Origin: Candidatus Latescibacterota bacterium
Lineage (GTDB): Bacteria > Latescibacterota > UBA2968 > UBA8231
Length of the DNA stretch: 64,000 bases
Direction of reading: 5' to 3'
Assembly: GCA_965208105.1 (NCBI GenBank)
Contig: OZ242318.1
Location: 4,512,001-4,576,000 of the forward strand
Positions 17,085-62,793 of this stretch are shown piece after piece. The position numbers and the translations under genes were made by a program. The first letter of the stretch is position 1, and each line of letters begins with the position of its first letter. The notes under the pieces were generated by a model. The model saw only the letters and a list, made by a program, of their open reading frames with translations, searched no databases and had not been told where the DNA came from.

Positions 17085-17101
17085 AAGTGAGGAGTAGAAA
17101 T

Positions 17102-18280
17102 ATGCTGGAGATCGAATCGACCCAGGCCTACATGCGGGAAACCGGTGTGGACGCCTGGCTGGTCTACGACTTTCGCGGCAGCAACCCGGTTCTGTGGCAG
17201 CTTGTCGGGGGCAGCAGGGCGACCACCCGGAGAAGCTTTCTGCTGCTGCCCGCGCGAGGCGAGGCGAGGATCATCGCCCACGCAATCGAGAAGGAGGTCT
17301 TCTCGGATCTGGAGGTGGAGGTCGAGTCCTACGCCGGACGGGGGGAGATGCTCGACAGGGTGCGCGAAGCCCTGCAGGGGTGTTCGCGGGTGGCCATGGA
17401 GTACTCTCCCAGGGGCGAGTTGCCCGTCCTTTCGTGGGTGGACGGGGGCACCCTGGAGCTGATCAGGTCCCTTGGAGTGGAGGTGGTTTCGTCGGCCCCG
17501 CTCTCCCAGGTGGCGCTGACCCTGTGGAGCGAGGCGTCCCTGGAGTCACACCTGGACGCGTGCCGCCAGGTGGGCGAGGTCAAGGACGCCGCCTTCGACT
17601 ATATCCGCCAGGGATTGCAGGGAGGATCGTCCCTGACCGAGTCCGACGTCCAGGAGTTCATCCTGAGAGAGTTCCGCCGCCGCAGGCTGGAAACGGATCA
17701 TCCGCCCATCGTCGGCACCAACGCCAACAGCGGCAATCCCCACTACGAGCCCGTAGAAGGGAGGTCGGCGCAGATCGCCCGGGGAGATTGGGTATTGATC
17801 GACCTGTGGGCGAGGCGTCCGGGCGAAGGGAATGTTTTCGGCGACATCACCTGGGTCGGCTACGCCGGCGCCGGGGTCCCGGAGACTCATCAGCGCATAT
17901 TCGACCTGGTCGCCGAGGCCCGCGACAAGGTGGTTGAGCGCTTGCGCCGGGATTGGGACGCGGGCAGGACGGCGCAGGGCTGGGAACTGGACCGGGTGGC
18001 GCGCGACCTCATCGAGGCGGCCGGCTACGGCGCCCGTTTCCTCCACCGCACCGGGCACAGTCTGGGACCGGGTCCGAAGGTACATGCCCTGGGGGTGAAC
18101 CTGGACGATCTCGAGACCCACGACACCCGCGAGATTCTGCCCCGGACGGGATTCTCGGTGGAGCCCGGAATCTACCTGGCCGAGTTCGGGGTGAGACTGG
18201 AGATCAACGTGTACGTGGATGGGCGCTCGGGGCCCACGGTCACCACTCCCGTTCAGGACGAAGTGGTCGAGCTCGTCTAG
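17102..18280 (+). CDS. M24-family Xaa-Pro aminopeptidase-like metallopeptidase
   Basis: NPHY, LIDLW..GDIT, HRTGHSLG, SVEPGIY, GVRLE. Confidence 0.9.
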   Translation: MLEIESTQAYMRETGVDAWLVYDFRGSNPVLWQLVGGSRATTRRSFLLLPARGEARIIAHAIEKEVFSDLEVEVESYAGRGEMLDRVREALQGCSRVAMEYSPRGELPVLSWVDGGTLELIRSLGVEVVSSAPLSQVALTLWSEASLESHLDACRQVGEVKDAAFDYIRQGLQGGSSLTESDVQEFILREFRRRRLETDHPPIVGTNANSGNPHYEPVEGRSAQIARGDWVLIDLWARRPGEGNVFGDITWVGYAGAGVPETHQRIFDLVAEARDKVVERLRRDWDAGRTAQGWELDRVARDLIEAAGYGARFLHRTGHSLGPGPKVHALGVNLDDLETHDTREILPRTGFSVEPGIYLAEFGVRLEINVYVDGRSGPTVTTPVQDEVVELV

Positions 18281-18393
18281 ACCTTATGTATTGACGGAGA
18301 TATGAAAGACCTCCTCCGACTCGGTTGTCGGGGGTTATCTTTGGGAAAACGGAGTTCACCCAAAGACCTATCCCCAGCGAGAAGGAGGAGGCC

Positions 18394-19533
18394 ATGCGTA
18401 AATCTACGAAATTCGTCGCCTTGGACATACATAAAGATTCGATCACCGTCGCCCTGGCCGGTGAAGGCCGAAAAGGGCCAGACCTGTATGGAACGATACC
18501 GTCTACGGGCGCCGCGTTGTCCAAGCTGGCGGGCCAACTGGCCCGTGGTGGGACCTCGTTGCGGTTTTGCTACGAGGCCGGACCCTGCGGCTACGGCGTC
18601 TACCGTCAGCTCACAGCCCTGGGGCACGCCTGCACGGTGGTGGCGCCCTCGCTGATCCCGCGTCGGCCGGGCGACCGCATCAAGACCGACCGCCGCGATG
18701 CTGTGTCTCTGGTGCGGCTTTTCCAACACGGCGAGTTGACCCCCGTGTGGGTGCCCGACGAAGCGCAGGAGGCGATGCGCGATCTGGAGCGCTGCCGGGA
18801 AGACTTCAAGCACGCCGAGCGCCGCGTGCGCCAGCGGCTGAACAGCTTCTTGCAGCGCCACGGCCGGATCTACTCCGGGCGCAGTCGCTGGACCCAAGCC
18901 CACTTTCGCTGGCTGCAGACCCAGCGCTTCGATCATCCGGCCCAGCAGATCGTCTTTCAGGAATACGTGGACGCGGTACAGGAAGCCCAAGGTCGGATCC
19001 AGGGGTTGGACCAGGCCCTGCAGCAGGCGCTGGAGGGATGGTCTTTGGAAGGGGAGACGCGGGCTATGAGGGCGCTGCGCGGGGTAGACACGCTCACCGC
19101 GGTTACGACCCTGGCCGAGTTGGGGGACCTCACCCGCTTTGACTCGCCGCGCCAACTGATGGCCTTCGTCGGTCTGGTCCCCAGCGAGCATTCCAGCGGC
19201 TCCCGCCAAAAGCGAGGGGCGATCACCAAGGCGGGCAACGCCCACGTGCGGCGCGTGCTGGTGGAAGCCGCCTGGTGCTATCGCTTTCCCGCCCGCAAGA
19301 CGGCCGCCTTGCAACGACGCGCCGAACAGACCGCACCCCCCATACAGGCCATCGCCTGGAAGGCACAGAAACGCCTGTGTGGACGCTATCGACGGCTGAG
19401 TGGGCGAGGGATGCCGAAAAACAAAGTCTGCACCGCGATCGCGCGGGAGCTTTTGGGTTTCATCTGGGCCATCGCCTGGGAGCAGAAACGCCCCGGCCGC
19501 CTCGTGGCCAGGAGGCCTCGGATCGCCGCCTGA
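18394..19533 (+). CDS. IS110-family DEDD transposase/recombinase
   Basis: ALDIHK, YEAGPCG, KTDRRDA (DEDD residues), GLVPSEHSSG catalytic-Ser region, GAITKAGN; GGAGGAGG RBS. Confidence 0.95.
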   Translation: MRKSTKFVALDIHKDSITVALAGEGRKGPDLYGTIPSTGAALSKLAGQLARGGTSLRFCYEAGPCGYGVYRQLTALGHACTVVAPSLIPRRPGDRIKTDRRDAVSLVRLFQHGELTPVWVPDEAQEAMRDLERCREDFKHAERRVRQRLNSFLQRHGRIYSGRSRWTQAHFRWLQTQRFDHPAQQIVFQEYVDAVQEAQGRIQGLDQALQQALEGWSLEGETRAMRALRGVDTLTAVTTLAELGDLTRFDSPRQLMAFVGLVPSEHSSGSRQKRGAITKAGNAHVRRVLVEAAWCYRFPARKTAALQRRAEQTAPPIQAIAWKAQKRLCGRYRRLSGRGMPKNKVCTAIARELLGFIWAIAWEQKRPGRLVARRPRIAA

Positions 19534-19596
19534 TAAGCTCATCGTCTCAGAAGCCGGCATAGGACCTTTGCTCATGTAAATCGAAACGGGACAGAA

Positions 19597-19756
19597 GGGA
19601 CCGGTCAGGAGAATCCTCGAAGACACTATGAGGCGCCTATCAGGCTGACCCTCGACTCTAGATTGAGGCCGCTCCGCGACGCACCCAGGACAGGCGGTAA
19701 CCAACCCGCGAATATCAGTCGGATCAACCGTCGCTACAGCGTCCCTTCTGTTCCCG
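19597..19756 (+). ncRNA. Putative bridge/seek RNA of the IS1111-type element
   Basis: Closing stem CGGGACAGAAGGGAC / GTCCCTTCTGTTCCCG; internal loop strands GACACTA (19622-28) and TCTAG (19657-61) match the insertion site; ATATCAG (19712-18) matches the IS right end. Confidence 0.75.
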
Positions 19757-19826
19757 AACAAACTCATGCAAAGATAACACCCGAAACGACCACCCCGGAG
19801 GGGGTTGACAACCGTCAATACATATC

Positions 19827-19992
19827 AGTGTCCCGTCGCAGAAATATGTCGCCATTATTCCGCCGATCCATCCCGGCTCACGGCGTTGCCTTCACTCGCC
19901 GTACACCACTGGTACGACCCGCTCAGGCGCCTGGTGAGCCGGGCGCCTCGGCGGCCCAATTTCGTCAACCTATCTCTGCGACGGAACACTAG
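19827..19992. mobile_element. MITE copy 1 (left TIR interrupted by the IS; the leading CTAG remains at 18277-18280)
   Basis: Near-identical to 62626-62793; ends TCTGCGACGGAACACTAG. Confidence 0.85.
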
Positions 19993-20077
19993 TTCCCCGA
20001 TGACTTTTTCATCGGGCTGCCAGGGCGCCATCCCATCGCAGCTGGCATGGCCACAGGCGCAGCGCAGCCGGGGTTGA

Positions 20078-61373: not shown

Positions 61374-62629
61374 TGCAGCTCCGCGCAAATCTTCTCTCTA
61401 CGGCCCTGGGAACCCTCTGGATTTTATTCGGGGCCATGCAGGCAGGCGCCGGAGCAGGGATCGACGCCGACTTCAGCGGGCGCCTGAACCTGGAAAGCCG
61501 GTGGTTCCCCGAAGCCGGGGCGCACTCCGGCCAGGGCTCCTACAGCGTCGGCCTCGTGGCGGCGCCGGAAATTTATCTCGCCGGCGCGGGTGGCGGAAGC
61601 CTCACCATGGCGCCATTCCTGCGCTACGACAGCGCCGACCGGCGCCGTACCCATGCCGACCTGCGCGAAGCCTACGTTCTCCTGTTCGGCGCCATCGGCG
61701 AGGGCGAATGGGAGTTGCGCCTGGGCATGGAGCAGGTGTTCTGGGGCGTCGCGGAATCGCAGCACCTGGTCGATATCGTCAACCAGGTCGACCTGGTGGA
61801 ACACCCCGGCGGGGAGGCCAAGCTGGGCCAGCCCATGGTCCATTGCACCTGGTCGGCAACCTGGGGCATTGTGGAACTCCTGGCCTTGCCCTATCACCGC
61901 AAACGCACCTTTCCAGGCCGCTCCGGGCGCCTGCGGCTGCCCCTGGTGATAGACGATCGCAAGGTCGAGTACGAAAGCGAGGACGAAGAGCGGAACCTGG
62001 ATCTCGCCGTCCGCTACAGTCACAGCTTCGCCTCCCTCGACCTGGGCATCAGCGCATTCGACGGTACCAGCAGGGAGCCTTCTTTGCAGCTGGTCCCGGG
62101 CGGCGTTCCTTCCCTGCGGCAGCACTATGCCCAGATCAGCCAGTACGGACTCGACGCCCAGCTCACTGCCGGACCCTGGTTGCTGAAGCTCGAGGCCATT
62201 CGCCGCAGCGGCGCTCCCAACCTGTCGGGCAGGGAGGAGGACTACCTGGCCTCGGTAATCGGCGCCGAGTACTCTTTTTACTCGGCATTCGGCACTGCTG
62301 CCGATCTCAGCCTGCTGGGCGAGTGGAATTACGATGGCCGCGGCCGCAAGGCGACGCCGAGCCGCTCTCCCAATACCCTCGAGAACGATTACTTCCTCGC
62401 CGCCCGCCTGGCTTTCAACGACGTCCACGGCAGCGAATTTATCGCCAGCTTTCTGGGAGACGCCGGCCGCGGCACGCGAACGCTGGTCCTGGAACTGGAC
62501 CGGCGAATCCCCGGCGGCGTATCGATAAACCTGGAGTCGATCCACCTCCTCGGCATCGACGAGGCGGACCTGCACTACGCGACCCGCAAGGACAGCTTCA
62601 TCGACCTGGTTCTGAGGTATAGTTTCTAG
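61373..62629 (+). CDS. Outer-membrane beta-barrel hypothetical protein
   Basis: Signal peptide, DLREAY, VFWGVAES..LVD.VNQ, C-terminal LRYSF; typical partner of the MMPL and LolA-like genes. Confidence 0.8.
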   Translation: MQLRANLLSTALGTLWILFGAMQAGAGAGIDADFSGRLNLESRWFPEAGAHSGQGSYSVGLVAAPEIYLAGAGGGSLTMAPFLRYDSADRRRTHADLREAYVLLFGAIGEGEWELRLGMEQVFWGVAESQHLVDIVNQVDLVEHPGGEAKLGQPMVHCTWSATWGIVELLALPYHRKRTFPGRSGRLRLPLVIDDRKVEYESEDEERNLDLAVRYSHSFASLDLGISAFDGTSREPSLQLVPGGVPSLRQHYAQISQYGLDAQLTAGPWLLKLEAIRRSGAPNLSGREEDYLASVIGAEYSFYSAFGTAADLSLLGEWNYDGRGRKATPSRSPNTLENDYFLAARLAFNDVHGSEFIASFLGDAGRGTRTLVLELDRRIPGGVSINLESIHLLGIDEADLHYATRKDSFIDLVLRYSF

Positions 62630-62793
62630 TGTCCCGTCGCAGAAATATGTCGCCATTATTCCGCCGCTCCATCCCGGCTCACGGCGTTGCCTTCACTCGC
62701 CGTACACCACTGGTACGACTCGCTCAGGCGCCTTGTGAGCCGGGCGCCTCGGCGGCCCAATTTCGTCAACCTATCTCTGCGACGGGACACTAG
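62626..62793. mobile_element. MITE copy 2, intact (168 bp including flanking CTAG)
   Basis: Perfect 18-bp terminal IR CTAGTGTCCCGTCGCAGA / TCTGCGACGGGACACTAG; no coding capacity; second copy at 19827-19992. Confidence 0.88.

Follow-up and report, generated by a model that had tools for sequence, protein, structure and literature searches.

A predicted bridge/seek RNA in the right non-coding end of an IS1111-type insertion sequence from a Latescibacterota genome

The insertion sequence and the repeat that it targets

The DNA analysed here, referred to as the window, is a stretch of 64,000 nucleotides from the genome of a Candidatus Latescibacterota bacterium (contig OZ242318.1, positions 4,512,001 to 4,576,000). 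Positions 18281-19828 of its forward strand are occupied by an insertion sequence of 1548 bp, one copy of the core dinucleotide AG (19827-28) being counted as part of it. This span was set by the 12 copies of the element in the source genome, which all have the same span and identical borders, and by empty sites that read CTAG/TGTC (the slash marks the point of insertion). In each of the 12 copies the left border reads ACCTTATGTATTGACGG immediately after ...CTAG, and the right border ends in CCGTCAATACATATC, followed by AG. The dinucleotide AG was present at both junctions of every copy and only once in empty sites, and the unoccupied ends of the target repeat likewise carry CTAGTGTC with one AG only. 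We conclude from this that AG is the 2-nt core, which reads CT on the other strand; an earlier reading of the locus from its letters (the sequence-only reading) had already proposed a bottom-strand core CT as in IS621. Alignment of the 12 junctions, together with the list of open reading frames, placed the left half of the target, TCT, and the left copy of the core at 18276-18280 (+; core at 18279-80). The TAG at 18278-80 within the target CTAG is also the stop codon of an upstream open reading frame (17087-18280, 397 aa); the MITE-like repeat described below and the insertion sequence lie directly behind this stop codon, and the reading frame is not disrupted.

The transposase gene lies at 18394-19533 (+) and encodes a protein of 379 aa. 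Domain searches found PF01548 (DEDD_Tnp_IS110, E 5.6e-13) and PF02371 (Transposase_20, E 1.7e-22), and the NCBIfam model NF033542, 'IS110 family RNA-guided transposase', scored 263 bits against a cut-off of 140. The residues D11, E61, D99 and D102 are present, as is the string GLVPSEHSSG at residues 260-269; in weak PDB matches, the four acidic residues and SSGS (267-270) align with the transposases of ISCro4 and IS621. The match to the IS621 protein is itself weak (E 2e-5) and confined to residues 221-293. The protein has a DEDD RuvC-like N-terminal domain and a Tnp domain with a conserved serine, as is described for IS621 (PMC11208160), and a Pfam domain search found no relation to HUH transposases. 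Judged by its domains and motifs, the protein is an IS110-family DEDD transposase.

The ends of the element were examined with a repeat search, which found subterminal inverted repeats, TATGTATTGACGG at 18285-18297 (+) and CCGTCAATACATA at 19812-19824 (+), 13 bp in length and 100% complementary. A 4-nt terminal extension, ACCT, stands before the left repeat, and TC and the core AG come after the right one. In PMC11208160, the IS1111 group is characterised by subterminal inverted repeats of 7-17 bp, and short terminal extensions outside such repeats are described for the IS1111-family seekRNA elements in PMC11187229. Also in keeping with the IS1111 group, the non-coding region downstream of the transposase gene is the longer one, with 295 nt (19534-19828) against 113 nt upstream (18281-18393). 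The motif GL-P----S(t)G, which PMC11187229 attributes to IS1111-family transposases, is present as GLVPSEHSSG; in contrast, the length of 379 aa exceeds the 330-350 aa that the same paper quotes for the family.

Ten of the 12 copies in the source genome are inserted at (N)CTAG/TGTCCC, which is the end of a MITE-like repeat of ~168 bp, and the right flank of these ten reads TGTCCCGT(C/A/G)GCAG. The remaining two copies lie in unrelated DNA, at CTAG/TGTT and CTAG/TGGT. The repeat has terminal inverted repeats (TIRs) of ~20 bp (TAGTGTCCCGTCGCAGA...) and always CTAG-like flanks. The flank of the window element gave ~100 BLAST matches in the source genome, and TIR matches numbered 96 and 90 genome-wide, with 75 pairs standing 160-169 bp apart and thus corresponding to ~75 intact copies. 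One copy in the window, delimited at 19827-19992 by BLAST and TIR matches and given no strand, is the one occupied by the insertion sequence; its end is the target, with the right target half TGTC at 19829-32. Another copy in the window, at 62626-62793, is intact, and its left end forms an unoccupied target, TCTAGTGTC, at 62625-62633 (+); its other end, read from 62793 on the reverse strand, is CCTAGTGTC. Both ends of the repeat are used, seven copies of the insertion sequence being located at one end type and three at the other. Insertion specific to the terminal inverted repeat of another mobile element is shared with IS4321/IS5075, although the target there is a large transposon and not a MITE. 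The IS1111-family elements described in PMC11187229 differ in this respect, their targets being a REP, an attC site or the Tn21 TIR. One TIR pair in the source genome is separated by 2841 bp instead of ~165 bp (G000:C1:753951-756791), and may be either a composite or an autonomous element from which the MITE derives.

A two-armed fold conserved among relatives

Minimum free energy and centroid folds of 19585-19760 both produced an outer stem that carries two arms, with an internal loop in each. The fold was more stable than that of shuffled sequences (z = -3.05; none of 200 shuffles folded as well), and the fold of the whole non-coding stretch (19534-19830, 297 nt) was unremarkable (z = -1.33). 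An exact-string search located the arms of the outer stem, CGGGACAGAAGGGAC at 19587-19601 and GTCCCTTCTGTTCCCG at 19741-19756, which delimit the predicted RNA core at 19587-19756 (+). The sequence-only reading had recognised both arms, but had begun the feature at 19597, which lies 10 nt inside the 5′ arm. The putative target-binding arm spans 19608-19675 (+), with basal stems formed by GGAG 19608-11 and CTCC 19672-75 and by CCTCG 19615-19 and TGAGG 19664-68, and a distal hairpin at 19629-19654. The putative donor-binding arm spans 19676-19734 (+), with a basal stem formed by GCGACG 19676-81 and CGTCGC 19729-34 and a distal hairpin at 19694-19709. Both arms were defined from the folds, the RNAalifold consensus and the covariation counts presented below. 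The stems CCTCGA 19615-19620/TTGAGG 19663-19668 and TGAGG 19629-19633/CCTCG 19650-19654, and the two loop strands that they enclose, AGACACTA at 19621-19628 and ACTCTAGA at 19655-19662, were recovered by exact-string search just where the sequence-only reading had placed them. A search of 18200-20000 against Rfam 15 (E <= 10) returned no match overlapping the RNA core at 19587-19756; its four weak hits elsewhere in that range were well below the gathering scores and at chance level.

In a scan that covered one genome per species, 233 encoded relatives were confirmed; the best 80 of these, with transposases 57-85% identical, were kept for analysis. The best 80 of the 233 come from MAGs labelled Gemmatimonadota, Latescibacterota, Nitrospirota, Proteobacteria and others. 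Their left ends are conserved as flank-AG-ACAT(N)-ATG(T/G)ATTGACC and their right ends as GGTCAAT(A/C)CATATC-AG-flank, and their flanks are widely different. RNA cores were excised by means of two anchor motifs, which yielded 55 distinct sequences; 54 were aligned, and L110, with a long insert, was left out. The anchors missed seven loci (L063, L065, L071, L072, L074, L075 and L108), which are absent from the alignment. The RNAalifold consensus of the 54 distinct sequences contains 45 pairs. Standard pairing was found in 94.0% of the cells (n=54), compared to 82.9% after shuffling and 37-44% when the partners were slid by 1-3 columns. Bases had changed on both sides in 27 of the 45 pairs, the outer stem showed covariation in 15 of its 15 pairs, and none of 500 shuffles reached any of the five measures. 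G:U pairs, in the orientation of the transposase gene, are frequent among the conserved pairs, with UG 45 at columns 48/85 and GU 16 at columns 56/77 as examples. These results support a structured non-coding RNA with two internal loops in one end of the insertion sequence.

A covariance model built from the 54-sequence alignment (model R1) located the RNA 3′ of the transposase gene in 77 of the 80 related loci, including loci outside model building and all seven that the anchors had missed. The three loci without a match were L035 and L039, which are without downstream DNA, and L109. On the window RNA the model gave a hit at 19585-19770 with 169 bits, and in the source genome it matched all 12 copies as well as a solo right-end remnant (L014, G000:C1:3931346-3931510). 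This remnant is 91% identical to window positions 19665-19830, is without a transposase gene and gave a partial match of 56 bits. A defective copy (L012 and L013, G000:C1:1994926-1996382) is without ~90 bp of the transposase gene (query 1176-1268) and has an intact RNA region (170 bits with R1); judged by its sequence, it could still be a source of guide RNA.

The nearest named relative by transposase is ISEc45, a RefSeq name, with 48.5% identity over 94% of the query. On the E. coli plasmid NZ_CP096978.1, the 3′ non-coding region of ISEc45 matched R1 over its full length (42 bits, E 2e-9), which reveals a two-loop RNA homologue downstream of its transposase gene (L111, 2311-2498). ISEc45 is nevertheless a distant relative, with other ends and another target. 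A reading of its guides from the one plasmid copy was dropped, the register being unclear. Among the papers listed for ISEc45, which are resistance or genome surveys by title and abstract, we found no discussion of a bridge or seek RNA. When R1 was run against an IS5075 locus, nothing better than E 0.69 was obtained, and we therefore regard the model as specific to this clade and uninformative on canonical IS1111 RNAs. The transposases of IS4321 and IS5075 belong to another clade, with ~26% identity over 61% of the query. Because of this low identity, the higher identity to ISEc45, the match of R1 to ISEc45 and not to IS5075, and the length of 379 aa, the element is filed by sequence comparison in the IS110 family, with an IS1111-type layout, in an ISEc45-like clade.

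Loop strands, target flanks and element ends

In the sequence-only reading, the two internal loops were taken to be separate target and donor loops, and the way proposed to check this was to fold and model homologous ends and to compare the loops with the insertion sites. This was done on the homologues, and co-variation was found: the fold is conserved, and the loops track the flanks and the right end across the family. In the window, the 5′ strand of the first loop carries GACACU (19622-19627, +), the reverse complement of AGTGTC at 19827-32, and is a putative guide complementary to the top strand of core and right flank (AG-TGTC). The 3′ strand carries UCUAG (19657-19661, +), which is identical to the left flank plus core at 18276-80 and complementary to the bottom strand. 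Both matches had been pointed out before the homologues were compared. Along the RNA, the match to the top strand comes first, followed by that to the bottom strand, and the two overlap at the insertion point, as is described for IS1111-family seekRNAs (PMC11187229).

We compared loop strands with flanks in distinct combinations of guide and flank, of which 45 were available on the right and 40 on the left after exclusion of duplicate rows and of rows with a contig end too near the insertion sequence. The 5′ strand was the reverse complement of the right flank at +1 in 39, at +2 in 35, at +3 in 37 and at +4 in 34 of the 45 combinations; further out, the counts were 23 at +5, 19 at +6, 8 at +7 and 7 at +8. 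The 3′ strand was identical to the left flank at -1 in 39, at -2 in 34 and at -3 in 28 of the 40 combinations, and at the next three positions in 13, 8 and 11. Beyond +6 and -3 the match was at background level. Quantification of the data showed a mean of 4.16 matches over the six non-core positions of the right guide, compared to 1.77 after permutation, and of 2.53 over the three of the left guide, compared to 1.42; none of 5000 permutations, in which RNAs were combined with the flanks of other elements, reached the observed value on either side. These permutation tests, like that on the donor loop below, take no account of relatedness among the homologues. Both strands of the target loop thus co-vary with the flanks, and the profile of matches points to a family target code of 3 + 2 (core) + 4 to 6 bp. 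It is this comparison across the family, and not the single window sequence, that raises the guide identities above chance.

The code of the window element is TCT-AG-TGTC, the same 9-mer that had been read from the window sequence. The source genome contains 13 such 9-mers, and 87 copies of the 8-mer CTAGTGTC, mostly repeat ends. The site at 62625-62633, which had been predicted to be a perfect unoccupied target, matches at nine of nine positions and is one of the 13. Among the 12 copies of the element, the left guide reads UCUAG, CCUAG or CAUAG, and the copy's own left guide is matched at all five positions in only 5 of the 12; since the RNAs may act in trans, this count speaks neither for nor against the model. 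Natural variation is concentrated in the 3′ strand of the target loop. Copies in the source genome read ACTCTAGA, ACCCTAGA or ACCATAGA, with the copies at G000 2091316, 2703330 and 2924951 involved, and further variants, close to the 5′ side of the guide, occur in contigs of environmental RNA libraries (window positions 19656, 19657 and 19663).

The 3′ strand of the second loop carries AUAUCAG (19712-19718, +). A string search and the family comparison both identified it as a copy of the right end of the insertion sequence plus core (19822-19828), in agreement with what the sequence-only reading had noted. The loop string ATATCAG together with an end ATATC+AG was found in 46 of the 54 sequences. 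Variant right ends are mirrored in the loop in four of four cases (ATACC in L052, L061 and L106; ATAAC in L043), and four loci show a loop change without a matching change of the end (L066, L082, L088 and L089). The 5′ strand of the loop, AGGACAG (19687-19693, +), matches the bottom strand of the junction at five of seven positions and is a partial candidate guide for the left end (top strand AG-ACCT). The doubt that had been raised about this guide was borne out across the family, where the strand, which usually reads GAAGUCAGG in relatives, complements the left end in part only. Complementarity was found at core G and C4 in 45 of 45 combinations, at A3 in 37 and at T6 in 36, and never opposite core A (0 of 45). 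At the three variable left-end positions, the mean match was 1.72 of 3, compared to 1.28 after permutation, and 7 of 5000 permutations reached the observed value. The left end reads ACCTT in the small group of the window element and ACATC in most relatives; with the third base after the core thus changed from A to C, the loop has a G opposite it in five of five loci of that group. The column of A19690 covaries with that of U19719 (columns 131/161; UA 42, AU 5, the five being the window's group), which suggests an intra-loop pair that would account for the mismatch at A19690. Pairing of the donor loop with the target and of the target loop with the donor, in the manner of handshake guides, was looked for by eye, and no consistent pattern emerged.

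All in all, these comparisons make it very probable that the right non-coding end encodes a bridge/seek RNA of ~170 nt, belonging to an IS1111-type element of the IS110 family, whose loops match the element's own end and its insertion site. If the first arm were instead the sole guide, the transposase would read the ends of the element through the subterminal repeats, and the second arm would be a structural or protein-binding scaffold in which ATATCAG is a mere resemblance. In favour of such an arrangement, the short 82-nt seekRNA of ISEc11, in which two target-matching segments (T and B) were located, is reported in PMC11187229 to have supported movement of a mini-IS, and the arrangement would fit both the poor match of the second-loop 5′ strand to left ends across the family and the four loci in which the loop has changed and the ends have not. 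We nevertheless consider it improbable, given that all four variant right ends come with the identical loop substitution and that the left-end change from A to C is answered by a loop G in every locus of the window's group. Durrant et al. also report donor loops in IS1111-group RNAs (PMC11208160).

Within the reading of two guide loops, the imperfect 5′ strand leads to a more tentative proposal. An interrupted donor guide is also described for IS621, where U159 is flipped out of it and pairs with A131 (PMC11208158), and discontiguous RDG-RD pairing is described by Durrant et al. (PMC11208160). The family studied here resembles IS621 in having an interrupted donor guide with an intra-loop pair, U159:A131 there and columns 131/161 here, and differs from it in that the imperfect donor guide is the 5′ strand. 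Donor recognition in this widespread clade might then be asymmetric and mirrored with respect to IS621, with a 7-nt guide for the right end and an interrupted guide for the left end that has an intra-loop U:A pair and an obligatory core-A mismatch; we regard this as possible and rather doubtful. If it were true, the subterminal repeat and the protein, and not the RNA, would govern recognition of the left end, or the order and direction of strand exchange, and the family would represent a mechanistic variant of bridge recombination.

Expression, mechanism and relation to known systems

A promoter scan of 18200-19900 found 0 sigma-70-like sites. In PMC11187229, transcription is proposed to start from a promoter at the circle junction and to run through the transposase gene into the non-coding region. 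Inspection by eye of abutted ends showed TTGACA-17 nt-CATCAT in relatives and no good -10 at the window's own junction. Metatranscriptome contigs from three studies, in which DNA may be present, show 90-99% likeness to the insertion sequence and cover the non-coding region, and a contig of 162 nt (run X3) spans 19597-19758 with a word depth of 18, compared to 8.4 for its neighbour; contig ends and depths in RNA libraries are a measure of neither RNA ends nor RNA level, and these data were counted as no support.

A comparison of sequences cannot separate an RNA from the same strand of DNA, and the negative promoter scan would also be compatible with guides made of single-stranded DNA, in which the right end of one strand would fold and pair with the target like the subterminal DNA of IS200/IS605. 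This is very unlikely, as the protein belongs to a family with published RNA co-purification and RNA-bound structures and is without relation to HUH transposases, and as the many conserved G:U pairs on the transposase strand fit a transcript of that strand. Hardly credible at all is a structured 3′ UTR or regulatory element of the transposase mRNA with chance matches to target and ends, which could appeal to the shortness of the guide strings (5 to 7 nt) and to the unremarkable fold of the 297-nt region, and which is contradicted by loop strands that change with the flanks in dozens of homologues to a degree that none of the 5000 permutations reached.

In the bridge/seek RNA reading that we prefer, the outer stem would carry two arms with an internal loop in each, one binding the target and the other the donor. 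The UCUAG strand of the target loop would pair with the bottom strand (TCT + AG), and both strands of this loop would jointly specify the 9-bp sequence TCT-AG-TGTC, which is the tip of the MITE-like repeat in the source genome. In the donor loop, the AGGACAG strand would pair incompletely with the left end of the insertion sequence. With this RNA bound to it, the DEDD/serine transposase would bring together a circular copy of the element, its ends abutted, and the target, and would exchange strands at the AG (CT) core. Published work on ISEc11, ISPa11, ISKpn4 and IS621 is the basis on which we infer an action of the region as RNA, its binding by the transposase, the circular intermediate and the chemistry. 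Similarly, the term reprogrammable, used in the sequence-only reading, draws on covariation seen in nature and on experimental work with other elements (PMC11187229, PMC11208160).

RNA-guided transposons of the bridge/seek kind were first described in 2024 (PMC11187229, PMC11208160). The seekRNA of the IS1111 family is described as derived from the 3′ non-coding region of elements with subterminal repeats and as co-purifying with the transposase; in it, the top-strand match precedes the bottom-strand match (PMC11187229). According to predictions by Durrant et al., 93% of IS1111-group elements have a bridge RNA in their right end (PMC11208160). Judged by the published descriptions, the predicted RNA of the window lies in a long non-coding region 3′ of the transposase gene like the seekRNAs of ISEc11, ISPa11, ISKpn4 and ISPst6 (Siddiquee et al. 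2024, PMC11187229). With IS621, as described in Durrant et al. 2024 (PMC11208160) and Hiraizumi et al. 2024 (PMC11208158), it shares a target loop and a donor loop, both of them internal. In either loop, one strand corresponds to the top and the other to the bottom strand of the DNA, the core dinucleotide included, with only a partial match to the left end in the donor loop of the family studied here; the core is CT on one strand (PMC11208160). It differs from IS621, as described in PMC11208160, in its location, in the right end here and in the left end there, in a guide order that is reversed relative to the transposase strand, and in guide lengths, the left guide being 3+2 nt and the right guide 4-6+2 nt here.

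The element is a clear new example of a known mechanism, a predicted bridge/seek RNA of known kind in a new and well-populated clade, and the current picture of how IS110/IS1111-type elements work is unchanged by it. Its guides could be read straight from the raw sequence. The more than 50 distinct natural pairs of guide and target found among its relatives define a target code of 9-11 bp (3+2+4 to 6), and the consistently imperfect donor guide for the left end may interest engineers of IS1111-type recombinases. In the source genome, 12 copies and ~87 further candidate sites provide a well-documented natural example of an insertion sequence that exploits the tips of a MITE, itself a mobile element, and that thereby has many harmless landing sites at its disposal.
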